Positions 11,646-55,430 of a DNA stretch of 64,000 nt are shown in pieces. Numbering within the stretch: position 1 is the stretch's first letter; each line of letters opens with the position of its first letter. The position numbers and the translations under genes are program-made. Below the pieces are notes generated by a model, which did no database searches, had not been told where the DNA came from, and saw only the letters and a program-made list of their open reading frames with translations. Source of the DNA: an uncultured Acidimicrobiales bacterium (GTDB lineage: Bacteria > Actinomycetota > Acidimicrobiia > Acidimicrobiales > VFJN01); assembly GCA_963802385.1 (NCBI GenBank), contig CAWDIO010000020.1, positions 12,422-76,421 on the forward strand, in the 5' to 3' direction.

Positions 11646-12637
11646 CGGTAGTCGATGCCCCCGTGGGCGGCGGGGAACAGCTCGAAGCGCATGCGCTCGC
11701 CGGGCAGGCCCGCGGCCAGCAGGGCGTCACGGAAGGCCGTGGCCCCGAGGTCGAGGAACCACTCGTCGCGGGTGCCGGCGTCGATCCACACCGCCTTGAG
11801 GTCCCGGGCCACCTCGGGCCGGGCCGCGGCGATGCGCACCGGGTCGTAGGCCAGCCACCGCTCCCACACGTCGGGGACCAGGGCCCCGGTGGCGGGGTCG
11901 AAGGGCAGGCGGACGGTGCCGTCCTCGTCGGCCGAGTAGGCGGCGGCGTAGGCCCAGATCTCCACCAGCTCGCCGTCGGTCTCCTTCGACAGCGGCACCC
12001 GGGACCCGAAGTCGGCCCAGAAGCGGTCGTAGGAGCCGCCGTAGTCGTCCCGCAGGGAACGCACCAGCGGCGGGAAGCTGGGGAGGTGGCACGCCTCCCA
12101 CAGCGCGTCGCCCGCGTGGGTGGCGAGCGCGCCGAACAGGTCCGGCCGCCACAGGGCCGTGACCATGGCGCCGTAGCCGCCGCTGGACTTGCCCATGACC
12201 GCCCGGTGCGCCGGGTCGTCCAGCGTCCGGTAGTGGCGGTCGACCCAGCCCACCACGTCCCGGCACAGGTAGGTGTGGTAGCGGCCGATGGCGGGCGAGT
12301 CGACGAACTGGCTGCCGCCCAGCGTGGTCCAGGCATCCACGTACACCACGATCACCGGCGGGCACGACCCCGACGAGAGCGTGGCGTCGGCCGTCTCGAT
12401 GAACGGCTGGCGGAACGGCGTGCGGTTGCGCCACATGGCCACGTGCCCGGTGAAGCCCATCAGCACGTACACCGTGGGATAGCGATCGGTCCCGCCCTCG
12501 TAGCCGGGCGGGGTGTACACCCAGAGCGGTCGCTCGTGGGCGTCGCCCAGCGGGTTGCCCCGCAGGGCCTCGCTGTCGACGACGCGCTCGTCGAGCCGCC
12601 CGGCCAGGGGTGCCGACCAGGGCAGCCCGATGTTCAT
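11600..12637 (-). CDS. putative esterase family alpha/beta hydrolase (esterase D / enterochelin esterase-like)
   Basis: Start MNIGLPW at 12637. PTVYVLMGFTGH and the nucleophile elbow GKSSGGYGA. The upstream part of ORF 11600-12892 is low-complexity. Confidence 0.75.
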   Translation of the reverse strand: MNIGLPWSAPLAGRLDERVVDSEALRGNPLGDAHERPLWVYTPPGYEGGTDRYPTVYVLMGFTGHVAMWRNRTPFRQPFIETADATLSSGSCPPVIVVYVDAWTTLGGSQFVDSPAIGRYHTYLCRDVVGWVDRHYRTLDDPAHRAVMGKSSGGYGAMVTALWRPDLFGALATHAGDALWEACHLPSFPPLVRSLRDDYGGSYDRFWADFGSRVPLSKETDGELVEIWAYAAAYSADEDGTVRLPFDPATGALVPDVWERWLAYDPVRIAAARPEVARDLKAVWIDAGTRDEWFLDLGATAFRDALLAAGLPGERMRFELFPAAHGGIDYRYPLALAWLAERLAP

Positions 12638-41044: not shown

Positions 41045-43976
41045 ATGAGCGCTGACCGCAGCACGACGGGTTTGAAGCTGGGGGCGGGGCTCGTCGTGTG
41101 CGCGGTGCTGGGCGCCCTGGTGGCGCGGGGCGATGCCGCGCCGCCCGCCGAGCTGGCCCTGCGGGGCGGCGGGGCGTGGGTGGCGTCCTCCACAGTGGGC
41201 CAGCTCACGCTGATCGACGGGGGCACGGCGGAGGTGGCGGCGCGGGTCCTGGTGGCGGAGGGCACGACCGAGCTCGGTGCCGTCCAGTCCGGCAACGTGG
41301 GCTACGCGCTCGGACCTCGCCCGGGGCACCGTGCGCCGGGTCGATCCGGCCACGTTCGTGGCCGGGTCGCCGGTCGAGGTGATCGAGGGCGCCCGCCGCG
41401 ACCTCACGCTGCACCCGAGCGACGACCTCATGTACGTGGTCGACCACGAGCGGGGCAAGGTTGCGGTCACCGACGGCCCGGTCCCTGTCGGGCCTGAAGG
41501 GTGAGGTGCAGTCGCTGGCCGAGCCGGTGAGCTCCAGCGTGGTGGACGGGTCGGGCCGGCTGTGGACGCTGGGTCAGGAGACCGGCGACCTCGTCTGGTT
41601 CGACGGCACGGAGCGCCACGTCCGCCGGGCGGTGGTGCACGACCCGGGCGACACCGAGCTGGTGGTGATCGACGGCCAGCCCGCGCTGGTGGACCGGGCC
41701 ACGTGCCTGGTGCGCACGGTGGGCGACGACGGCGGGTTCCGGGCCCGGTCCTGTCTCGACATCGACCCGGCGGATCGTTCGGTGCGGGTGGCGGGCTCGG
41801 AGGGGGCGCGGCGGCTGTTGGTGGTGTCGGGCGACGACGGGGTGCTGCGGGTGAGCGACCTGGGCTCGGGGGAGTGCGGCGAGGTCGTCGTGGACGTGGC
41901 CGACCCGGACTCGGACCTGGGCGCGCCCGAGGAGTCCCAGGGCAAGGTGTTCATCCCCAACTACACGACGGGCACGGTCGTGATCGTGGACCTGGAGACC
42001 CGGGAGCGCGCCAGACCACCGGCAAGCTGGTGGAGCCGGGCACCGAGTTCGAGCTGTTCGAACGGGACGGCATCGTGTTCTACAACGACCCGAGCAGCGA
42101 GCGGGCCGGTGTGGTGCGGGTGGACGGCACCTTCGCCGAAGTGGAGAAGTACGACGCCGACCGCCCGGGCGCGGGCGTGGTGCCCGAGGGCGGGCGGGAC
42201 CAGGCCCCGGTCCCGGACCTGGCCGCCCCCGGCCGCGGCCAGGGGACCGACGAGGGCGCCCTGGGCGGCCCCGACCAGGGCGGGGGCCCCGACGAGGTCA
42301 CGGACGGGCCCGACGCCGAGGAGGGCGACGGTCCTGCGGAGTCCCCGCCCAGCGAGCTCGGCGGGGACCGGTCGGCGGAGCCCGTCCCCGACTCCGGTCC
42401 CCCGGGCGTCCTGCCGGACCCGACCCCCGGACCCCTGACCCCGGCACCCCCGACCCGGGAACACCGGCACCGGCAACCCGGTGCCGGCCGACGGGATCGA
42501 CTTCACGGTCGACCAGGCCGCGGCCGACATCGACGAGGAGGTCCGCTTCACCGCCTTCGCCACGGATCCCGACGACCGGCTGAGCGACGTCTCCTGGCAG
42601 TTCTCCCTCGACGACGTTCCGGCCGGCGAGGCCACCGGCAACCCGCTCGACCACTCCTTCGCCGACGCCGGCACCTATGAGGTCAGCGTCCAGGGCACGC
42701 TGCGCTCGGGCTCGGAGCCGGCCCGGACCGTGTCCATCGTCCACAGCTTCCGGGTCCTGGACCCCACCGTGGAGCTGGTGGCCGATTTCTCCGGCCCGCC
42801 GACGGCCGAGACCGGCCAGCCGGTCACCTTCACCAACCTGTCGACCGGCGCCACCCGGTACTCCTGGAGGTTCGAGGGCGCCCGACGCCCCGACACCTCG
42901 ACCCAGCGCACGCCGCCCCAGCAGTTCTGGGAGACCGCCGGAACCTACACGGTGACGCTGGAGGTGCGAGCGCGGCAACGAGCGGCGGCAGCAGAGCCAG
43001 GACATCGTCATCAGCGACCCCCTGCCCGACCTGCCGGTCGTCGGCCCCATCACCCCCAGCCCGGCAGGACCGTACGACACGACCATGACCATCACGTTCA
43101 GGGCCGACCTCACCGCCGACCCCTGGGACGAGTGCTGCTTCACCATCGAGGGGGCACGGGTCGACTGCGACCCGACGCCGATCGCCGGCGGCACCCGGTT
43201 CTCGGCCAGCCACCGCTTCACCACCGAAGGCAGCAAGACCATCACGCTGACCGTCCGCAACGCGGTGCGGCTCCGCGAGCCCCAGCCCGCTGGTCATCGA
43301 CGTCGACCGAGCTGACGCCTCCGACCGTGGCGATCGAGGTGACCTCGGGCGCCGATCTCGACGCCGGCGTGTGGGTGACGGACGACCACAGGCGGTGACG
43401 TTCGACGGTGGCAGCAGCCGGGGCGACTTCGACCGCTACTTGTGGCGCGACGAGTCGACCGGCGCCACCTCCAGCGGGCCGGTCTGGACGGTCACCCTCG
43501 ACGGCGGCCAGCACATGATCACGCTCACGGTGGTGTCCGACCGGCAGGGCGGAATCCAGAACTCGGCCTCGGTGCCCGTGGACGTCCTCATCGCGGAGCA
43601 GGCACCCCCCGAGGTTGGGGCGATCCTCGGACAGCACGCCTGCCGAGGGGTTGGGGGGCCGGGCGTTCCACCCGTTTGTGACCCCATCGCGAGGATCCAG
43701 CTCTTCGGCCGGTTCGAGGGGGCGTGCGTCGACGAGAAACGGGGTGGAGACGCCCTTCGACGTCGACCGGCGGGGAGCCACCCCGCTGGCCGAGGCCGTA
43801 CCGTCCGAGCTCCCCGGCCCCGCCCCGGACGGGGACGGGTCACCTTCTTCACCGGCTACGACTTCTGTCCTGCCGGCGACCAGTTCGGCCCGGCCATGGA
43901 TGTCGAGGTGTGGGCGGTCGCCTACACCGACCGGGCGGGCCAGCGGGGCGAGAGCGAGCACATCATCAGGCCGTGA
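41045..43976 (+). pseudogene. beta-propeller + PKD-repeat gene, tandem copy 3, heavily disrupted
   Basis: ATG 41045 (MSADRSTTGLKLGAGLVVCAVLG). Collinear with copies 1 and 2. About 9 frame changes are needed. TGA 43974-43976. Confidence 0.7.
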
Positions 43977-44643
43977 AGCGGTAGCCCATCCCCGGCTCGG
44001 TCACGATGTAGCGGGGCTGGGCCGGGTTGGGCTCCAGCTTGCGGCGCAGGTTGGCCAGGTGGACCCGCAGGTAGTTGCTCTCCTCGCCGTAGGCGGGGCC
44101 CCACACCTCCCGCAGCAGGTGCCCGCGGGTCACCAGCCGGCCGGCGTTGCGCGCCAGCACCTCCAGCAGCCCCCACTCGGTCGGGGTCAGCCGGATGGCG
44201 CGCCCGTCCCGGCCCGTGACCCGGCGATCGGCCAGGTCGATGCGGAAGTCGTCGGTCTCGACCACCGGGGCCTCGGGCGCGGGCGAGGTGCGGCGCAGCG
44301 CGGCGCCCAGGCGGGCGAGCAGCTCGGCCATGCCGAACGGCTTGGACACGTAGTCGTCGGCGCCCGCGTCCAGGGCGACCACCTTGTCCTCCTCGGAGCC
44401 CCGGGCGGAGAGGATGATGATCGGCACCGCGCTCCAGCCCCGCAGCCCGCGGACCACCTCGATGCCGTCGATGCCCGGCAGGCCGAGGTCGAGGATCACC
44501 ACGTCGGGATGGTGCCGGGCCGCGAGCTGGAGCGCCTGCTCGCCGGTCGAGGCCAGCAGCACGTCGTAGTCGCGGACCCGCAGGTTGGCGGACAGGGCCC
44601 GCTGGATCGGGGGCTCGTCGTCGACGACCAGCACGGCGGTCAC
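43966..44643 (-). CDS. OmpR-family response regulator, KdpE-like paralogue
   Basis: GTG 44643. VLVVDDEPPIQRAL...VILDLGLPGIDG...ILSARG...DAGADDYVSKPF receiver plus the LTPTEWGLLEVL...YLRVHLANLRRKLEP...EPGMGYRF wHTH. Very similar to the kdpE at 48077. Confidence 0.85.
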   Translation of the reverse strand: MTAVLVVDDEPPIQRALSANLRVRDYDVLLASTGEQALQLAARHHPDVVILDLGLPGIDGIEVVRGLRGWSAVPIIILSARGSEEDKVVALDAGADDYVSKPFGMAELLARLGAALRRTSPAPEAPVVETDDFRIDLADRRVTGRDGRAIRLTPTEWGLLEVLARNAGRLVTRGHLLREVWGPAYGEESNYLRVHLANLRRKLEPNPAQPRYIVTEPGMGYRFTA

Positions 44644-44657
44644 GACGCCCGCTCGAC

Positions 44658-44717
44658 CTAACTCGCCGCGAGGCCGAAGAATCCGATGGTGACGAGGACG
44701 AAGAGGATGTCCTTCAT
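44658..44717 (-). CDS. 19-codon hydrophobic micro-ORF (MKDILFVLVTIGFFGLAAS), speculative
   Basis: Its ATG overlaps the TGA of the USP-like gene (ATGA). A single TM-length hydrophobic peptide that ends 14 nt before the response-regulator start. Confidence 0.25.
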   Translation of the reverse strand: MKDILFVLVTIGFFGLAAS

Positions 44718-45127
44718 GTGCTGCTCCCGGCCGGGGTGGGGACGGGGACGAGGATGCTGATGACGCGGGGATCGCCGTCGACGCGCGCCGCGATGCGCTC
44801 GGCGGTGCCGTCGTGGAGCAGCCGGTGCCAGCTGGTGGAGGGCAGCAGGCGCCCGGCCACCACGACCACGTCGGCGGCCCCCCGGCGCAGCTCGTTCCGC
44901 ACATGCGCCGCCACGGCGGCGGCGACGTCGCTGCCGTCCACGATGACCAGGGGCTCGGGGTGCTCGGCCGCCATCCAGCGCAGGCCGAGGGCGTGGGCCC
45001 GCCGGGCGTCGGTGGCCACGTGCACCGCGACGTGGCGTGCGGCCCGGGTCCGGCGGGCGACCTCGAGCGCGGCGGTGGCCCGCCGGTCGAGGATGCCCAC
45101 GGGCACGACGACCACGCGCTCGCTCAC
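44714..45127 (-). CDS. universal stress protein-like (adenine nucleotide alpha-hydrolase fold) protein
   Basis: GTG 45127 overlaps the OB-fold gene stop (GTGA). RVVVVPVGILD...HVAVHVATD...ADVVVVAG pattern. Confidence 0.55.
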   Translation of the reverse strand: MSERVVVVPVGILDRRATAALEVARRTRAARHVAVHVATDARRAHALGLRWMAAEHPEPLVIVDGSDVAAAVAAHVRNELRRGAADVVVVAGRLLPSTSWHRLLHDGTAERIAARVDGDPRVISILVPVPTPAGSST

Positions 45128-48080: not shown

Positions 48081-48766
48081 CCGGGAGCCGCGTGCTCGTG
48101 GTGGACGACGAGCCGCCCATCCTCCGCGCCCTCGGGACCAACCTCCGGGTCCGGGACTACACCGTCGACCTGGCCGCCACCGGCGAGGAGGCCCTGGCGC
48201 TGGCGGCCCGCCACCGGCCGGACGCGGTCATCCTCGACCTGGGCCTGCCCGGGATGTCGGGCATCGAGGTGGTGGAGGGCCTGCGGGGCTGGTCCAGCGT
48301 GCCGATCATCATCCTCTCGGCCCGGGGCGCCGAGCACGACAAGGTGGCGGCCCTCGACGCCGGGGCCGACGACTACGTCACCAAGCCCTTCGGCATGGAC
48401 GAGCTGCTGGCCCGGCTGCGGGCCGCGCTGCGCCGCAACGCCCCCGCCCCCGAGAGCGCCCTGGTGGAGACCGACGACTTCACCGTGGACCTGGCGGCCA
48501 AGAAGGTGCGCAAGCCGGCGGGCGAGGTCCGGCTCACGCCCACCGAGTGGGGCCTGGTCGAGGCGCTGGTGCGCAACGCGGGCCGGCTGGTCTCCCAGCG
48601 CCAGCTGCTCCAGGACGTCTGGGGCCCCCAGTACGGCGAGGAGACCAACTACCTGCGGGTCCACATGGCCCACATCCGCCGCAAGCTGGAGCCCGTCCCC
48701 TCCCAGCCCCGCTACTTCGTCACCGAGCCCGGCATGGGCTACCGCTTCGAGGGCGCCCACGCCTGA
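48077..48766 (+). CDS. kdpE: response regulator KdpE
   Basis: GTG 48077 overlaps the kdpD TGA. OmpR-family receiver plus wHTH (LTPTEWGLVEAL...YLRVHMAHIRRKLEP...EPGMGYRF). Confidence 0.9.
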   Translation: MTGSRVLVVDDEPPILRALGTNLRVRDYTVDLAATGEEALALAARHRPDAVILDLGLPGMSGIEVVEGLRGWSSVPIIILSARGAEHDKVAALDAGADDYVTKPFGMDELLARLRAALRRNAPAPESALVETDDFTVDLAAKKVRKPAGEVRLTPTEWGLVEALVRNAGRLVSQRQLLQDVWGPQYGEETNYLRVHMAHIRRKLEPVPSQPRYFVTEPGMGYRFEGAHA

Positions 48767-48778
48767 TCCGCGCTCGGA

Positions 48779-49168
48779 ATGCTCCCGCAGGCAAGGAGCA
48801 CACCGGAGCAGAGGAGATGGCCGGTGAACCTCATCCAAGCGAGCACGCTCCTGCTGCAACAGCAGGAGCCGGGCGCGGCCGACCCCGCGGCCCGGAACCC
48901 GGGCGACATGCTCAACGACTTCTTCGCGTCCAACCCGTGGCTCACCGCGCTCATGGCCGGCGTGGGGGTGGTCCTGGTCCTGTGGGTGATCCTGCGGGCC
49001 GTCTGGCAGGCCAGGGAGGAAGGCAGCGGCCGGGCCGGGCTCACCGCGGTGCGGGGCGCCCTGCTGGCCATGCTGCTGTTCATCCCCAGCCTGATCGGTG
49101 AGATCGCCAGCGTCGCCTACACCGGGGTGACGGCCGTGGCCGACTGGTTCTTCAACCTGCTCGGCTGA
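48779..49168 (+). CDS. small two-TM protein, VirB2/TrbC-pilin-like topology (start uncertain)
   Basis: Two hydrophobic helices (WLTALMAGVGVVLVLWVIL and ALLAMLLFIPSLIGEIA) joined by a charged loop. Alternative starts are ATG 48908, or ATG 48817 (good SD) in another frame. Confidence 0.4.
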   Translation: MLPQARSTPEQRRWPVNLIQASTLLLQQQEPGAADPAARNPGDMLNDFFASNPWLTALMAGVGVVLVLWVILRAVWQAREEGSGRAGLTAVRGALLAMLLFIPSLIGEIASVAYTGVTAVADWFFNLLG

Positions 49169-49195
49169 CCCGGGAGGACCGAGAAGGGAGGACCT

Positions 49196-49657
49196 GTGCC
49201 CGGCACCGGCCCGACCATGGTCTGCTTCAGCGAGGCGACCCGCAAGCCGCCGTGGCGTATCCGCCGCGGCGCGATCAACATCCCCGTGCGCCAGGCCGCC
49301 GGCTTCATCGCCGGTGCCCTCGTGGCCGCCCCGCTGGGGGCGGCCCTGACCGCGCTGGCCGGTTCGTGGACCTTCCTGACCGGCGCCTGCGCCCTGGGCG
49401 CCGTGGCCGGCGCCCTGGCCGTCACCGCCCGGCCCGGCGGCGAGCCGCTGCCCCACTACCTGTGGCGGGCGCTGTGGGCCCGCCGCGCCCGGGTCGAGTA
49501 CCGGGGCCGCAAGGGCCGGCTCTACGTGGGCCTGTGCCCGGTCCCCACCGACGAGATCTCCCGCGGCGACACGGTGCTGCTGCGGTCCTCGGCGGTCGAG
49601 GTCAACCCGCGGCTGGTGGGCGAGCGGGGAGAGATGCTGGACCGGAGGCGCCCGTGA
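49196..49657 (+). CDS. PrgI/TcpE (VirB3-like) family candidate, small membrane protein
   Basis: GTG 49196 after GAAGGGAGGA. The basic N-terminus, then two adjacent TM helices, then GGEPLPHYLWRALWARRARV resemble the PrgI-family layout. Confidence 0.4.
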   Translation: MPGTGPTMVCFSEATRKPPWRIRRGAINIPVRQAAGFIAGALVAAPLGAALTALAGSWTFLTGACALGAVAGALAVTARPGGEPLPHYLWRALWARRARVEYRGRKGRLYVGLCPVPTDEISRGDTVLLRSSAVEVNPRLVGERGEMLDRRRP

Positions 49658-52420
49658 GCCGCTCCCGGCTACGCCTCGGGCTCTGGGCACTGGCGCTGGC
49701 GGTGCTGGTCCTGCTCGGCGTGGCGTCGCCTCTCGGGGCCTCGCCCGACGGGCCGTCGGGCCTCGCCGCGCCGGTCCAGTCCGTCGGGCGCGCGGCGGCC
49801 AACCCGTGCGTGGGCGACGCGGTCCAGGGGATCGGGGAGTGGGACTGCCTGCCCTTCTACCGCTGGGCCAACGAGGCCGACAGCTTCACCTCCAACTTCG
49901 GCGCCACCGAGATCGGCGCGGCCAACGTGATGCAGCCGCTGGTCACCTTCCTCTACGGCATGGCCGGGCTGATGTGGCGCCTGCTCCAGTGGGTGACCCG
50001 CACCGCGCTGGCCTTCGACCTGTTCAACCGGCGCGACGGCGGCAGCAGCACCCCGATCGCCCTCCAGCCCATCGACGCCGGGTTCGCGGCGGCCGCCGAC
50101 ATCGTGCTGTCGGGGATCGGGCTGGCGGTGCTGGCCGTGGCCGCTCTGGTGGTGGTGGGCCGCGCCGCCCGCAACAGCGACACGCCGCTGCGGGACCTGG
50201 CCCGGCCCTTCCTGTGCTTCGCGGTGCTGCTGGTGCTCCTCGCCCGGTCGGCCCCCGACGGCGGGGGCGGGGCGCAGGCCGGCAGCCCGGCGTGGCTGGC
50301 CGAGCGGGGCGTGGGCATGTCCAACCTCATCGCCGACCAGATCAGCCAGGCTGCGCCGCGCCAGTCCCCGGGGGACACGCCCGACAACCTGCTCGACTGC
50401 GGCTACTACGTGAACGCGCTGCGCCAGTCGTTCGAGGAGGACGGCGACTACAGCGAGGACCTGGTGGGCTCGGTGGCGTTCCAGCCCCACCTGGCGTCGC
50501 TGATGTCGTCGCTGTGGGAGTCCGCCTACCTGGACCTGTGGATCGAGGCACAGTTCGGCAGCGACCCGGACCTGTCCCGGCGGGCCTACTGCCGGCTGCT
50601 GGAGGACAAGGCCGAGGTGGCGCCGTCCGACCAGGCCGCCATCCAGCAGGCGGCGGTGGCCGCCGAGGGCGCCTCCCTGCCCACGCCCGGCACCCAGGGC
50701 TCGGCCCCGTTCGGCCGCTTCAACGACACCAAGGACTTCCGCCGGGGGATGGTGGCGTGGGCCGTGTGCGGCTACTACCCCGACCGCTCGGGGCTGAAGG
50801 AGGAGGCCGGCGGGGCGCTGCGGGCCGGGTCGGGCTCGGGCTTCGCGGTGAACCCCGAGTTCCGGCTCATGTGGAACCTGGGCTCGCCGCCCTCGGAGGC
50901 GGCCGAGGGCACCTGCTCGGACTGGTGGGGCACCGACGGCAGCGGCACCACCAAGCCCGATCCCCGGGGCACCAAGTGGGGCGTGCGCGACGGCGACGGC
51001 CCCTTCCAGTTCGGCACCGGCGACGACATCACCGAGGCGTTCACCGTCTACGACGAGGAGCAGGTGGCCGAGGTGGCGGGGGCGGGCTTCACCGGGATGC
51101 TGGCCCCCTACGAGGACGCCGACCGCGAGAACCTGCCCGCGGGCCGGGAGTGGGTGTTCGCCCTCAACGGCCACAGCCTGACCGGCGCGGTGCCCCATGC
51201 CTTCCTCGCCATCGTCATCGCCGCCGTGTACCTGTGGGCGGTGGGCGGGCTGGCGCTGGGGACGCTGGTGGCCCAGTTCCTCACCGTGCTGGTGTGCGTG
51301 GCGCTGCCGCTGCTGCTGGTGGTGGGCATGTGGCCCAGCGAGGCCGCGGGCCGCATCTTCACCCGCTACCTCAAGATCGGCGCGGGCTCGCTGTTCGCCA
51401 AGGCCGTGTTCGTGTCGCTGCTGGCAGTGCTGCTCACCATCATCAGCGTCATCTCCCGGCTGGGCGAGCTGACCGGGGCGTTCGACGCGGCCGCGGGCGG
51501 GGGCGCCGGCTTCGGGGCCACCATGCTCCAGGCGGCGGCGCCGCTGGTCGCCATCATCGCCATGCGCTGGGCGCTCAAGGACCTGGGCCTGGGCAACGTG
51601 TTCAGCCTGCGCGGCGCCATGGGAGTCACCGGGCGGCTGGCCCGCGGTGCGGGCACCCAGGGCTCGATCGCCGTGCGGGGCGCGGGCGCGGCCGCCTGCG
51701 GGCGCCGCGCTCGCCACCCGCCGCCGGCTGGAGGACCGGCGCCTGTCCCGCCACGCCCGCCGCGCCGCCGCCCGGGGCACCGGGGACGGGACCGCCGCGG
51801 GCGACGGCGAGGGGGCCGCCGCGGGCGACGCCGCCGCCGCGGGCACGGCCGGGGACGGTCCCGACGATCCGGGCGCGATCGGCGATGGCTCCGGCACCGG
51901 CTCCGGCGGGGAGGGTGCCGGTGTCCCGGCCCTGCCCCCGGGCTCGGCGCCCCGCCGCCGGGCCGCGGCGCTGCTCGACGGCGTGGTGGCCGGGGCCCTG
52001 GCCGCGGGCCAGCGGGCCACCGCGCCCCTGGCCGGGGCCGTGTTCGCCTGCTCGCGTGAGGGATCGGGCCGGCGCCGCCACCTGCCCCGGGTGATCCCGC
52101 GCCACCACGGGCGGGCGCCCAGCGCCGACGACCTGGCCGGCCTGGGCGACGAGCACGTGGCCGGCCGGCACGCCCGCCACGTCGAGACGGTCGTGGCCGC
52201 CGGCAACGGTGCCGACCCGGCCCGCTCGGCCCGCCACCCGGACGTCCGGGCCGGCTCGTCCATCACCGGCCGTCGGGTGGGGACCGACGGCAAGGTGGTG
52301 GGCCTCACCGCGTCGGGCCTGTCCGTGCCCCTGACCACCCCCGGCTGGAGCCGGCGTGACGGGCAGCGCCTCGTCACGCCGTCCGGCTACCGCGACCCAG
52401 CCGCTGCGAGGACCTCATGA
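49654..52420 (+). CDS. large polytopic membrane protein, VirB6/TrbL-like candidate with disordered Gly/Ala/Asp-rich tail (one frameshift near 51700)
   Basis: GTG 49654 (GGAGG upstream, GTGA overlap with the previous gene). Signal peptide, about 7 TM spans around a ~400-aa soluble insert, and a low-complexity C-terminus. The stop overlaps the next ATG (ATGA). Confidence 0.4.
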
Positions 52421-53454
52421 TTGAGCCCACCACCCGGCCGGTCATCCGACCCGGCGACCTGCTGAACGTGTACGACTACCAGGAGATCCGCTACGAGTTC
52501 GCAGCGGGGGCCGGCCTGCGGCCGGACCAGGTCCTGATGACGCCCTACGGCTACCCGCCGCTGCCCCGGCCGCCGCTGGGGGCGCCGGACGGCACCGGGC
52601 GCCTGCCCGCCAACCTGGCCCTGGAGTTCGCCGGGCACCCGGTGTTCTGGCTCGACGACGCCACCAAGCGCCAGCGGCCCGACGAGCACGACGACGCCTT
52701 CGCCATCCGCCTGTTCCTCGAGCTGGTCGACCGGGGCTACCTGCGGGAGGACGACGGCTGGCTGCGCAACCCCCTGGTGGCCACCGGCCTCGACGTGCGC
52801 AAGGAGGCCGACCGGGAGCGGCTGCTGCGCTACCAGGGCGGCGACTGGGACCCCGTGCTGTGTGACGTGGCCATCCCGCCCAACCCCGACACCGAGCCCG
52901 GGTGGATCGCCCGCCGCGCCGAGCAGGTCCACGAGGAGCACGCCGCCGCCTACCAGGAGCTCATCGAGGTGTACCGCGACGTGGTGCGGGCCGCCCTGGC
53001 CGACGCCCGCGACACGCTGCGGGAGGCCGACTTCGCGGCCGAGTCGCAACGGCTGGTGGAGGCGGCCGAGGTGCTGCGGGCCACGGCCGCCGCGGGCGGC
53101 GACGCCCGCCCGGCCCGGGCCGCGTTCGACGACGCCTACCGCTGGCTGCTGGCCCGCATGGCCCAGATCGACGACGCCCGCACGGTGCTCCTGGTGGAGA
53201 TCGACCGCCGCGCCAACCTGGACGCCCCCCGGGGCGCGGCGTCGTACGCCGATGACGTCCGCATGGCCCACGGCGCCCGCTGCGCCGCCCTGGAGCCCTA
53301 CATGGCGGCCGTCTACCACGCCCCCGCCGACGAGCTGCGCCTCCGGGCCCTCCTCCTCGCGCTCCGCGACGCCTACCACGAAGCCCTGGCCACCGGCCGA
53401 AACACCCTCACCCGCGCCGAGCGGGTCCTCGGCGACGTCCTCGACACCGCCTGA
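52417..53454 (+). CDS. hypothetical protein, mostly helical, last gene of the four-gene module
   Basis: Uninterrupted 345-aa ORF, translationally coupled to the upstream gene. No family recognised. Confidence 0.55.
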   Translation: MIEPTTRPVIRPGDLLNVYDYQEIRYEFAAGAGLRPDQVLMTPYGYPPLPRPPLGAPDGTGRLPANLALEFAGHPVFWLDDATKRQRPDEHDDAFAIRLFLELVDRGYLREDDGWLRNPLVATGLDVRKEADRERLLRYQGGDWDPVLCDVAIPPNPDTEPGWIARRAEQVHEEHAAAYQELIEVYRDVVRAALADARDTLREADFAAESQRLVEAAEVLRATAAAGGDARPARAAFDDAYRWLLARMAQIDDARTVLLVEIDRRANLDAPRGAASYADDVRMAHGARCAALEPYMAAVYHAPADELRLRALLLALRDAYHEALATGRNTLTRAERVLGDVLDTA

Positions 53455-53467
53455 CCGACCAGCAAGG

Positions 53468-53564
53468 CGAGGCAATAGGGGCCGCCGGGCGGCACCGGAG
53501 GCAATAGGGGCCGGGGGCCGACCGCGATTGCCTCGAGAGCGCCGGCGTGACCCCTATTGCCTCG
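53468..53564 (+). repeat. 97-bp nested-palindrome intergenic repeat, copy D
   Basis: CGAGGCAATAGGGGCC..CGGAGGCAATAGGGGCCGGGGGCCGACCGCGATTGCCTCG..GACCCCTATTGCCTCG. Begins 13 nt after stop 53452-53454. Confidence 0.9.
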
Positions 53565-53659
53565 CCTTCCCGGTCGGTCCGGGGGACGTGACCGGCTAAG
53601 GCTTCGCCGGGTTCGGGGGAGCGCGGGTACCGTGGACCGGCTCGTCAGGAGGCCCCTTC

Positions 53660-55430
53660 ATGTCCCCACGGTTCTTCGCAGGGGTGGCGTGGCCTTACGC
53701 CAACGGCCCCCGCCACATCGGCCACGTGGCCGGCTTCGGCGTCCCCTCGGACATCTGGGCGCGGCTGGGCGCGCATGGCGGGCCACGACGTGCTGATGGT
53801 GTCGGGCACCGACGAGCACGGCACGCCCATCACGGTCGAGGCCGAGGCCGAGGGGCTGACCCCCCGCGAGCTGGTCGACCGCAACAACGCCCTGATCGTC
53901 GACGACCTGGTGGGCCTCGGCCTGTCCTACGACCTGTTCACCCGCACCACCACGCCCAACCACTACCGGGTGACGCAGGAGCTGTTCCGGGGCCTGTACG
54001 CCACCGGCGGGATCGTCGAGGTCCAGCAGCAGGCCGCCTTCGCCGCCTCCGACGGCCGCTCGCTGCCGGACCGCTACGTCGAGGGCACCTGCCCCATCTG
54101 CGGCTACGAGTCGGCCCGGGGCGACCAGTGCGACAACTGCGGCAACCAGCTCGACCCCGAGGACCTCATCGAGCCCCGCTCCAAGGTCGACGGCCTGCCG
54201 CCGGTGTTCAAGGTGACGACCCAGTACGCCCTCGACCTGCCGCGCTACGCCGGGCTGCTGCGGTCGTGGCTGGAGGCCCAGGACGACTGGCGCCCCAACG
54301 TCCGGGCGCTCAGCCTCGGGCTGCTGGACGACGCCCGGGTGCGGGCCATCACCCGCGACATCGGCTGGGGCGTGCCGGTGCCCCTGCCCGAGTGGGAGGA
54401 CGACCCGCTCAAGCGGATCTACGTGTGGTTCGACGCGGTGATCGGCTACCTGTCGGCGTCCATCGAGTGGGCCGAGCTGTCCGGTGACCCCGAGGCGTGG
54501 GACCGCTGGTGGCACGATCCCGGGTCCCGCCACGCCTACTTCATGGGCAAGGACAACATCGTGTTCCACTCGTTCCTGTGGCCGGCGATGCTGGCGGGCT
54601 ACGACGGACCGCTGTGCGACCGGCCCGACGGCGAGCACGTGCCCCTGCACCGGCCCGACGACGTGGTGGCCAGCGAGTTCCTGACCATGGAGGGCCGCAA
54701 GTTCTCGTCCTCGCGCCGGGTGGTGATCTACGTGCGGGACGTCCTCGAGCGCTACGGCCCCGACCCGCTGCGCTTCTCCCTGACCGCGGGCGCGCCCGAG
54801 TCGGGCGACGCCGACTTCACCTGGGCCGAGTTCGTGCGCCGCAACAACGACGAGCTGGTGGCGACCTGGGGCAACCTGGTCCAGCGGGTGTGCGCCATGC
54901 TGCGCCGCCAGGGCGGCGCGGTGCCGGAGCGCACCCGCATCCCCGAGGGCGGCGACGAGCTGCTGGCCCGGGTGACCGGCGGCTTCGGGTCGGTGGGCGA
55001 GCTCATCGAGCGCTACAAGTTCAAGGCCGCGCTCCACGAGGTGATGGCGCTGGCCCAGGAGGTCAACGCCTTCGTCTCCCAGCACGAGCCCTGGAAGGTG
55101 GTCAAGACCGACCCCGAGGCTGCGCTCGGCATCCTGTCGGTGGCCTACGACGCGATCTGCGACCTCAACGTCATGTTCACCCCGTTCCTGCCCCACGGCA
55201 CCCAGCGGGTGTGGGACAACCTCGGCGTGGCCGTGACGGTCCCGCTGCCGGCGGAGTCCGAGGTGGGCGAGGGCGAGGAGCGCCACCGGGTCATCCGCAC
55301 CGAGGGCTCGTGGCAGCCGTGGGCGTCCGTCCGGGTCGACCCGGGCACCCCGCTGGGCGAGGCCTCGACGCTGTTCGCCAAGATCGACGTCGAGGTGGTC
55401 GAGCAGGAGCTGGCCCGCCTCGCCGGCTGA
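53660..55430 (+). CDS. metG: methionine--tRNA ligase, one frameshift near 53765
   Basis: HIGH motif (PRHIGHVAG), zinc knuckle [18 protein letters not shown], and a KMSKS-equivalent KFSSSR. The N-terminal 35 codons are in a different frame from the rest. Confidence 0.9.

Follow-up and report, generated by a model that had tools for sequence, protein, structure and literature searches.

An apparently undescribed, Tad-linked chromosomal locus with remote type IV secretion homology in a genus of Acidimicrobiales

We analyzed a stretch of 64,000 nucleotides, hereafter the window, from the genome of an uncultured Acidimicrobiales bacterium (GCA_963802385.1, G000 below; 4.8 Mb in 24 contigs, ≈75% GC), which corresponds to positions 12422–76421 of contig CAWDIO010000020.1 (C20). 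A profile of third-codon-position GC content, read together with an open reading frame (ORF) list, places four same-strand genes, G1–G4, immediately 3′ of kdpE (Table 1). They encode a small two-helix protein (G1), a short hairpin protein resembling PrgI/TcpE and thus VirB3 (G2), a large polytopic protein that resembles VirB6/TrbL (G3) and a soluble protein (G4); a membrane-anchored, multidomain putative cell wall hydrolase (G5) follows further downstream. We consider it likely that G1–G4, together with G5, are components of the type IV secretion system (T4SS) type. The window holds only the first part of a conserved ≈37-kb chromosomal locus, and the block, which the initial annotation thought might be a stand-alone membrane complex, turns out to be one end of that locus.

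Two of the gene junctions in the block overlap as had been described, with a GTGA in which the G3 start at 49654 lies on the G2 stop and an ATGA in which the G4 start at 52417 lies on the G3 stop at 52420, whereas G1 and G2 do not overlap and are separated by a 27-nt spacer. The predicted Shine–Dalgarno sequences are also in place, GAGGAG 8 nt 5′ of the G1 GTG and GGGAGG 5 nt 5′ of G2, and metG does follow the block with a start at 53775. The G1 ORF opens at ATG 48779 (129 aa), but the GTG at 48824 is its likely start, because GAGGAG lies 8 nt upstream and conservation among orthologues begins at about residues 15 to 18. The G1 start follows the kdpE stop by only 12 to 57 nt, and G1–G4 may therefore be cotranscribed with kdpDE in the window's subclade. 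A pattern scan of the 48.5–53.8 kb region, which is not informative at 75% GC, returned no σ70 promoter or intrinsic terminator. Two KdpE-like response regulators flank kdpD in divergent orientation and are ≈72 to 77% identical to one another (tblastn against relatives).

The G3 family links the block to known secretion systems. A hydropathy scan of G3 reveals a signal-like N terminus, ≈6 to 8 transmembrane (TM) spans, a loop of ≈320 residues, a C-terminal TM bundle and a low-complexity tail. G3 itself has no direct Pfam match, and its best NCBIfam candidate, the CD3337/EF1877 mobilome membrane protein model (NF046089), matches residues 517–602 at an E-value of only 8.9; precomputed Pfam assignments are likewise empty for all close homologues. 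A profile built from 24 homologues and searched against a library of 1.8 billion proteins recovered 501 clusters at 50% identity, 365 of them below 1e-10. Among 41 sampled members, which the profile had recovered at E-values of 1e-22 to 1e-68, NF046089 is matched by 24 (best 5e-8) and the Pfam TrbL/VirB6 family (PF04610) by six (best 1.5e-5), with all of these family-model matches below the 120-bit cut-off. The matches to the two models are collinear and fall in the N-terminal and C-terminal TM regions of the family. An hhalign comparison of the G3 family profile with a Priestia plasmid protein annotated "type IV secretion system protein" gave a probability of 76% (E 2.3e-5). The VirB6/TrbL-like identity proposed in the initial annotation is therefore borne out as a remote and transitive homology, and G3 has the layout of a VirB6-type protein, with at least five TM spans, a large loop and genetic linkage to a hydrolase and a VirB4-like ATPase. 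Four Cys residues in the loop, C252, C316, C375 and C424, are invariant in the 41 divergent members, which suggests that the loop is a disulfide-bonded ectodomain. An AlphaFold2 model of an intact relative (P0004), built from 24 close sequences, reached a predicted local distance difference test score (pLDDT) of 43, too poor for a fold search.

G2 has a basic N terminus followed by two TM helices (residues 37–55 and 60–78 in the hydropathy scan), and its C-terminal ≈55 residues are strongly conserved (EYRGRKGRLYVGLCPVP...). The window protein matches PrgI (PF12666) with 16.3 bits and an E-value of 0.015, residues 28–96 aligning with positions 16–82 of the 91-position model; the Pfam gathering threshold is 27 bits. 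PrgI is the top-ranking Pfam family in all seven G2 orthologues (E 0.002–0.03, best 0.0022), subthreshold throughout, and the protein in the corresponding position of a Euzebya megaplasmid (see below) gives PrgI at 15.5 bits (E 0.026) and TcpE (PF12648) at 14.8 bits (E 0.04), again subthreshold. A G2 profile returned nothing meaningful from the PDB sequences. G2 thus has the VirB3-type layout of a small protein with a basic N terminus and a two-TM hairpin that covers most of the PrgI model, and its assignment to PrgI/TcpE stands as a remote homology, since PrgI ranks first in every orthologue and in Euzebya. G2 does not adjoin a virB4 gene; the VirB4-like gene of the locus lies 26 kb downstream and is overlapped instead by a gene for a 540-residue protein, p540.

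G1 and G4 are conserved members of the module that carry less recognizable signatures. G1 contains two hydrophobic helices (residues 57–75 and 94–112 of the 129-aa ORF in the hydropathy scan) and is represented by an orthologue in every locus, those of the Euzebya plasmid and of three distant metagenomic relatives (L025, L026 and L028) included. The VirB2/TrbC identity first suggested for it is not supported, as G1 has no consistent Pfam match and PF04956 is not matched; one of 11 orthologues matches T4SS_pilin (PF18895) at an E-value of 0.035. In topology only, with a leader, two hydrophobic helices and a short basic loop, G1 resembles a pilin or TcpD/ConC. G4 orthologues lie 3′ of G3 in Euzebya, L025, L026 and L028. 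G4 has no Pfam or NCBIfam match, and its AlphaFold model (pLDDT 90, predicted template modeling score 0.72) comprises an N-terminal α/β domain and a C-terminal bundle of long helices, for which a Foldseek search of the PDB returned only generic helical bundles (best E 1.3).

The fifth gene of the module, G5, joins a GDSL/SGNH esterase, an SLT_2-like transglycosylase segment and a VanY/M15 carboxypeptidase behind a TM anchor; Pfam matches are VanY at 5e-10 and Lipase_GDSL_2 at 1e-6, with a weak SLT_2 match in the L001 orthologue, and the PDB matches are to VanY/LdcB. In L001, G018 and G007, which are more distant members of the genus, the G5 homologue follows G4 directly, and a hydrolase also follows G4 in L025, L026 and Euzebya, where the final domain set is M23 or SLT_2 plus VanY. 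The window's subclade has an insertion between G4 and G5 that comprises metG, an MFS fragment and an SDR gene, and a palindromic hairpin (fold −93 kcal/mol, z −6.3) stands at the junction, directly behind the G4 stop. Its core, GAGGCAATAGGGG, is present in 127 copies in the 4.8-Mb genome, and the hairpin is thus a dispersed element of the repetitive extragenic palindrome (REP) or miniature inverted-repeat transposable element (MITE) type. A small single-TM protein, p168, precedes G5; L025 carries a 169-aa gene before its hydrolase that is like p168 in size and has no detectable sequence similarity to it.

Mapping the genes of G018 onto contig C20 of G000 and onto G007 reveals the order of the remaining locus. 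After G1–G5 come m518 on the opposite strand, p208, p311, CpaB (SAF) and p209; then TadA (T2SSE), TadB, TadC (T2SSF), TadE, p137 and TadG; and finally a 1091-aa LysM protein, m229, p540 overlapping the gene of the VirB4-like ATPase, a ParA/MinD-like ATPase with an intein and an RDD protein. The ≈25 genes of G000, G018 and G007 are fully syntenic at 65 to 88% amino acid identity. The next conserved member after G5, m518, has no Pfam or NCBIfam match, and its synteny with G018 and G007 was traced by tblastn. The Tad components of the G018 copy match T2SSE (1.4e-20), T2SSF (3e-10 and 1e-3), SAF (4e-5), TadE (1e-4) and Tad (3.5e-6), and neither a Flp pilin nor a prepilin peptidase was identified among them; the Tad cluster of G000 is syntenic. 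Between G5 and m518, and in the window's subclade only, lie genes for a 191-aa protein without a family and for a SpoU-type methylase, a label inferred from the precomputed Pfam match of L002 at the syntenic position; this pair is another lineage-specific insertion within the locus.

The initial annotation also held that the block has no ATPase, which is true within the window only, where we confirm that neither VirB4 nor VirD4 is present; a TcpF/VirB4-like ATPase is found in the locus wherever a genome offers sufficient sequence, and the puzzle disappears once the contig is read past the window end. This protein comprises 818 residues in G018, and the G000 copy aligns over 812 of them. It matches Pfam AAA_10 with 70.8 bits and an E-value of 1.4e-19 (cut-off 27.5 bits) and NCBIfam TcpF at 1.6e-19 over the 414 residues 386–799, the latter below the 1100-bit cut-off of the model, and more weakly VirB4_plasma (3e-8) and VirB4_CagE (0.002). 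In G000, G010, G018 and G007, an AAA_10 search places the gene 22 to 32 kb past G3 on the contig and strand of the latter, and G004 has it on a different, short contig; the VirB4-like gene of this locus was not found in G002, G016 and G008, which are good genomes without the G1–G4 block. Module and ATPase therefore co-occur in five of five carriers and in none of three noncarriers. The adjacent ParA/MinD-like gene carries its intein in both G000 and G018, and inteins thus recur in the ATPases of the module, since the FtsK-like ATPase of the Euzebya plasmid (L029:1356-6644) carries one as well.

Within the genus, G3 is carried by nine of 19 genomes; 12 further families of the order yielded no copy. 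A limited-sensitivity search with the single protein did not find it in 300 other genomes of the class, and the same kind of search returned only two marginal matches among 400 genomes of the phylum. A tblastn search of plasmids with G3 recovered Euzebya only. The megaplasmid pEDY32-46I of Euzebya pacifica (NZ_CP031166.1, ≈514–542 kb) encodes a homologue of the VirB4-like ATPase (47% identical) and, in the same order, homologues of G1, G3 (26% identity), G4 (36%), part of G5, p540 and the ParA-like gene. Its G1 is immediately preceded by a NERD gene and a gene for a 1762-aa FtsK/SpoIIIE ATPase interrupted by an intein and LAGLIDADG elements. The genes of this module are annotated as hypothetical or ATP-binding, its hydrolase as an M23 "DD-metalloendopeptidase," and MOB-suite classifies the plasmid as non-mobilizable. 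In L026 and L028, a NERD gene and an FtsK_SpoIIIE gene likewise immediately precede the module, ParA or ParB is encoded nearby, and L025 carries G1-G2-G3-G4, the 169-aa gene and an M23+VanY hydrolase. Because the module follows NERD and FtsK/SpoIIIE genes in Euzebya, L026 and L028, its ancestry is probably conjugative, and by gene content the ancestor resembles a conjugation module of the plasmid type equipped with an FtsK-like (TcpA/TraB-like) coupling motor. As of Guglielmini et al. (2012, PMC3548315), TcpA homologues had been found in Firmicutes only and TraB in Actinobacteria only, and given that distribution, a system with both VirB4 and an FtsK-like motor in Actinomycetota is at least unusual.

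These data bear on a first alternative, that G1–G5 are a non-T4SS complex that remodels peptidoglycan or the envelope, the likeness to PrgI and VirB6 being noise from hydrophobic helices and the ATPase an unrelated neighbor. Such a complex would fit the direct T4SS-family matches of the window proteins, all of them subthreshold, the lack of a known fold for G4, the unusual size of G5 for a wall hydrolase and the failure to detect any VirB4-like gene less than 10 kb from the module in L026 and L028. We nevertheless regard it as highly improbable: two independent model libraries tie the G3 family to VirB6-type proteins in collinear fashion, with hhalign support at 2e-5, PrgI comes first for every G2 orthologue, the TcpF/VirB4-like ATPase tracks the module across carriers and noncarriers, and on the megaplasmid and the metagenomic contigs the module adjoins FtsK-type translocases, ParA and ParB.

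Table 1. Positions of the module genes and of other features in and around the locus (window numbering unless a contig is named).
Feature	Position	Strand	Description
G1	48824..49168	+	114 aa from GTG 48824; first gene of module
G2	49196..49657	+	153 aa; two-TM hairpin; GGGAGG Shine–Dalgarno sequence 5 nt upstream
G3	49654..52420	+	≈921 aa if read through; GTG start; frame break at 51697
G4	52417..53454	+	soluble, 345 aa; ATG start; coupled to G3
Palindromic repeat	53455..53577	.	REP/MITE-like hairpin, ≈120 nt, directly after G4 stop
p168	57271..57777	+	single TM (29–47); stop overlaps G5 start; orthologues in L002 and L013; no Pfam match
G5	57774..60986	+	1070 aa; TM-anchored; GDSL/SGNH esterase, SLT_2-like transglycosylase segment, VanY/M15 carboxypeptidase
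m518	62434..63982	-	≈515 aa; next conserved locus member after G5; frame break ≈62755
Tad cluster, G000	66.2–72.3 kb (window equivalent)		syntenic
VirB4-like ATPase	C20:92109-94544 (window equivalent 79688-82123)	same as G3	26 kb past G4, 15.7 kb past window end
ParA/MinD-like ATPase	C20:94577-98298 (G000); L021:13601-16126 (G018)		with intein
KdpE-like regulator	43966-44904	-	flanks kdpD
KdpE-like regulator	48083-48766	+	flanks kdpD
191-aa protein	61068-61643	+	no family; window's subclade only
SpoU-type methylase	61619-62272	-	label inferred; window's subclade only
tRNA-Ser(tga)	C20:115216-115301		16 kb beyond locus
Tyrosine-recombinase fragment	C20:115546-115788	opposite	weak match
Conventional VirB4/VirD4 pair	G002:C1:2.947-2.954 Mb; G016:C1:489-497 kb; G018:C16:35-43 kb; G007:C28; G008:C17		≈7 kb apart

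The initial annotation presented G3 as a polytopic protein of ≈920 residues, and the topology, signal, loop and tail are all found, whereas the single open frame is not. As assembled, G3 is an 801-aa ORF (49654-52059) that ends in ≈120 codons of out-of-frame read-through; the third-position GC profile shows the coding frame moving by +1 at ≈51697, and the genuine tail runs on in the following frame as far as 52420. Alignment of the DNA with that of six relatives reduces the break to a single extra T at 51697 (GCCGCC[T]GCGGGC), and G3 is intact as one ORF of 914 to 989 residues in five relatives, database homologues measuring 874 to 990. Third-position GC is maintained at 0.93 to 0.97 in the tail behind the break, and the ratio of nonsynonymous to synonymous substitution rates (dN/dS) is 0.29 to 0.45 there and 0.21 to 0.29 in the G3 head. 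Other long-read assemblies of close relatives (L002, L027 and G007) have the same genes broken at different positions. Since the tail has kept its GC signature and its constraint and the relatives' assemblies break elsewhere, the extra T is probably an assembly error. Further single frame breaks occur in the conserved genes kdpD (≈47200), m518 (≈62755) and p540 (C20 ≈91668), and the same comparison with L002, L027 and G007 suggests that these are consensus indel errors and not pseudogenes. The marker-gene completeness of the source genome is 73% despite its few contigs, and several genes have single frame breaks, a pattern typical of indel-ridden long-read metagenome assemblies.

The frame break also figures in a second alternative, already raised in the initial annotation, in which the locus is a decaying remnant, the immobilized carcass of a conjugative element, G1–G4 are nonfunctional and the G3 frameshift is real. 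This would account for the failure to find a type IV coupling protein (T4CP), a relaxase or an integrase in the locus, for the housekeeping genes interspersed in it (metG, the SDR gene and the SpoU methylase) and for its absence from about half of the genus, near-complete genomes included. It is hard to reconcile with the ≈25 genes that keep their order and open frames at 65 to 88% amino acid identity in G018, G007 and L001, and with dN/dS values of 0.2 to 0.45 for G1–G4, which are indicative of purifying selection and remain as low as given above behind the break; the GC signature of the tail and the differing break sites among long-read assemblies, in a genome of 24 contigs that is 73% complete, point the same way. 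Because synteny is conserved (at 65–70% amino acid identity) and dN/dS is 0.2 to 0.45, the locus does not have the appearance of a decayed remnant, and we regard that explanation as unlikely.

What surrounds the locus differs between subclades, with kdpDE at the flank in the window's subclade and SnoaL, DUF402 and 2OG-oxygenase genes in L001; conservation of the block next to kdpDE thus holds in the former and not in the latter. Lineage-specific genes, namely metG, SpoU and DUF1152 plus GntR, also lie within the locus. From the variable flanks and these internal genes, we conclude that the locus is old, accessory and chromosomally embedded and is not a freshly integrated element.

A third alternative is that of an ordinary, complete integrative and conjugative element (ICE) whose remaining parts lie outside the window. 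The VirB4-like ATPase and the ParA-like gene just beyond the window end, the accessory distribution of the locus in the genus and a tRNA-Ser gene followed by a weak integrase fragment at C20:115.2-115.8 kb could each be read in this way. The contig was, however, mapped up to the RDD gene, and no integrase is present in the locus, nor is there a Phage_integrase match in the window, as had been stated. No relaxase family is found among the Pfam and NCBIfam matches of the locus proteins, several of which, p208, p311, p540 and m518 among them, carry no annotation, the window as a whole not having been searched for relaxases. Neither G000, 73% complete by markers, nor G010 has a T4CP match (PF02534, PF12696), so that a look beyond the window for VirB4 and VirD4 yields the VirB4-like gene downstream on the contig and no match to either coupling protein family. 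The PF01580 matches in G000 are limited to FtsK and an EccC-like multidomain protein, both present in noncarriers too, and tblastn with the relatives' NERD and FtsK proteins found nothing further in G000 or in the G018 locus. The integrase fragment is separated from the locus by 16 kb and is oriented away from it, and tRNA scans did not turn up a convincing attachment site at either end. Subclades have different flanking genes, and housekeeping genes are present inside the locus. Because no T4CP, Pfam-recognizable relaxase or integrase was found in the locus, it does not appear to be an ordinary complete ICE even though a VirB4-like ATPase does lie outside the window, and we consider this the least probable explanation. 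The tRNA-Ser gene and the recombinase fragment on the opposite strand may mark the border of a different integrated element. Six other genomes of the genus contain, elsewhere, a conventional pair made up of a VirB4 (AAA_10 E 1e-54 to 1e-58) and a VirD4-type coupling protein; the pair was not found in G000 or G010 and is independent of the locus studied here.

In component set and order, the locus matches the MPF_FA/MPF_FATA T4SSs of monoderm bacteria, exemplified by pCW3 Tcp, ICEBs1 Con, pCF10 Prg and Priestia pB2.3. G2 corresponds to the two-TM VirB3-like PrgI/TcpE/ConD, G3 to the polytopic VirB6-like PrgH/TcpH/ConG of ≈800 to 1000 residues and G5 to the membrane-anchored multidomain peptidoglycan hydrolases PrgK/TcpG/CwlT, and a VirB4-family, TcpF-like ATPase is common to both. 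Priestia pB2.3 has the order VirB3-position protein, VirB4, x, VirB6-like, x, transglycosylase/C40 hydrolase; VirB3-like protein, VirB6-like protein and hydrolase are collinear with the locus, in which VirB4 is displaced. The plasmid-borne relatives of the module add an FtsK-like coupling ATPase, as TcpA does in pCW3 (PMC12857230; Guglielmini et al. 2012, PMC3548315).

The differences are nonetheless considerable. All similarities of the locus proteins to the monoderm systems are remote; VirB4 lies 26 kb from the VirB3-like G2 and is paired with p540; G3 has a large ectodomain with conserved Cys, and G4 is without a counterpart. G5 combines SGNH, SLT and VanY domains in place of muramidase or CHAP/NlpC domains, and no VirB8-like protein, relaxase or T4CP was found with the locus in this genus. 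The locus contains a Tad pilus cluster, is chromosomal and is interspersed with housekeeping genes; the plasmid-borne version in Euzebya, by comparison, keeps NERD and FtsK/SpoIIIE, has no Tad cluster and encodes an M23 hydrolase. Monoderm T4SSs are known almost entirely from plasmids and ICEs of Firmicutes, and the textbook picture for Actinomycetota is TraB-type transfer of double-stranded DNA with a few VirD4-type ICEs. Judged by remote homology, the locus is apparently an undescribed actinobacterial variant of the monoderm T4SS, Tad-linked and with new subunit families. The chromosomal T4SS of Patescibacteria, with MPF_FATA-related VirB4, VirB3/PrgI and VirB6 and mostly without a relaxase, is thought to have been co-opted for a function other than plasmid conjugation (Microb Genom 2025, PMC12102498). 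The present locus differs from it in belonging to free-living, high-GC Acidimicrobiales, in having no T4CP at all and in its giant hydrolase and Tad cluster.

In the reading we favor, which we hold to be probable, G1–G4 and G5 make up the functional membrane and wall core of a T4SS-like machine that has no coupling protein and whose motor is encoded outside the window. From gene order, homologies, linkage and distribution, we infer the following subunit roles. G3 would form the membrane translocon, with its Cys-containing ectodomain probably projecting into the wall; the G2 hairpin would tether a hexameric VirB4/TcpF-like ATPase, the one encoded 26 kb downstream along with its coupled 540-residue partner p540, to this translocon. 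G5 would open the peptidoglycan locally, as PrgK, CwlT and TcpG do (the VirB1/PrgK/CwlT role), G1 and G4 would be family-specific accessory subunits, and the Tad pilus genes between G5 and the ATPase may supply cell–cell contact. The module would descend from a plasmid-type conjugation system from which this genus lost the FtsK-type coupling ATPase while keeping the rest, and since the remaining genes are under purifying selection, the machine is probably still in use. Candidate substrate routes are DNA exchange without a dedicated T4CP or the export of protein.

Several observations weigh against this view. G3 is frame-broken in the assembly, and its link to VirB6 is transitive, as the window protein itself matches CD3337/EF1877 only at an E-value of 8.9. 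Every PrgI match lies below the 27-bit Pfam threshold, and an hhalign comparison of G2 with the Priestia VirB3-position protein, at very low diversity on both sides, gave nothing. The VirB4-like ATPase has no match among PDB sequences (phmmer), and no VirB8-like component was recognized. With no T4CP in the genome and no Pfam-recognizable relaxase in the locus, a function in DNA transfer would have to do without the usual parts, and the Tad genes, absent from the Euzebya version, may be mere neighbors. Precedents do exist for T4SSs without a T4CP and for type IV pili that aid transfer (review PMC12857230).

A more specific, tentative and rather unlikely version of the favored reading draws on archaea. 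There, the Ced and Ted DNA import systems, together with Ups type IV pili, employ a VirB4/HerA-like ATPase, a polytopic VirB6-like protein and small two-TM proteins; they have no relaxase or T4CP and are linked in function to a type IV-filament pilus that draws cells into contact. The locus would then be a functioning chromosomal T4SS without T4CP or relaxase, paired with its own Tad pilus as a bacterial counterpart of Ups-pilus/Ced, in which the pilus would make contact and the T4SS-like channel would exchange or import chromosomal DNA or deliver proteins into neighboring cells; new subunits specific to this family would be G4, p540, m518 and the giant LysM protein. The likeness between the locus and Ced/Ted is an analogy of parts only, with no sequence evidence of a specific relationship.

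Taken together, the locus is a coherent and apparently undescribed module. Its VirB6-like family spans ≈500 clusters at 50% identity, close homologues of G3 carry no Pfam domain, and the few members that were inspected are almost all of metagenomic origin. The plasmid form joins VirB3-, VirB6- and VirB4-like parts to an FtsK-type translocase, and in one genus of Acidimicrobiales the module persists under selection with no coupling protein at all and in linkage with a Tad pilus. The G3, G4 and p540 families could extend models of the CONJscan type, a point of practical interest for the Euzebya megaplasmid, which is now typed as non-mobilizable. The parts are recognizably those of a T4SS, and the finding thus extends known biology and does not introduce a new principle; the locus makes it possible to ask what purpose a T4SS serves once its DNA-coupling motor is lost.

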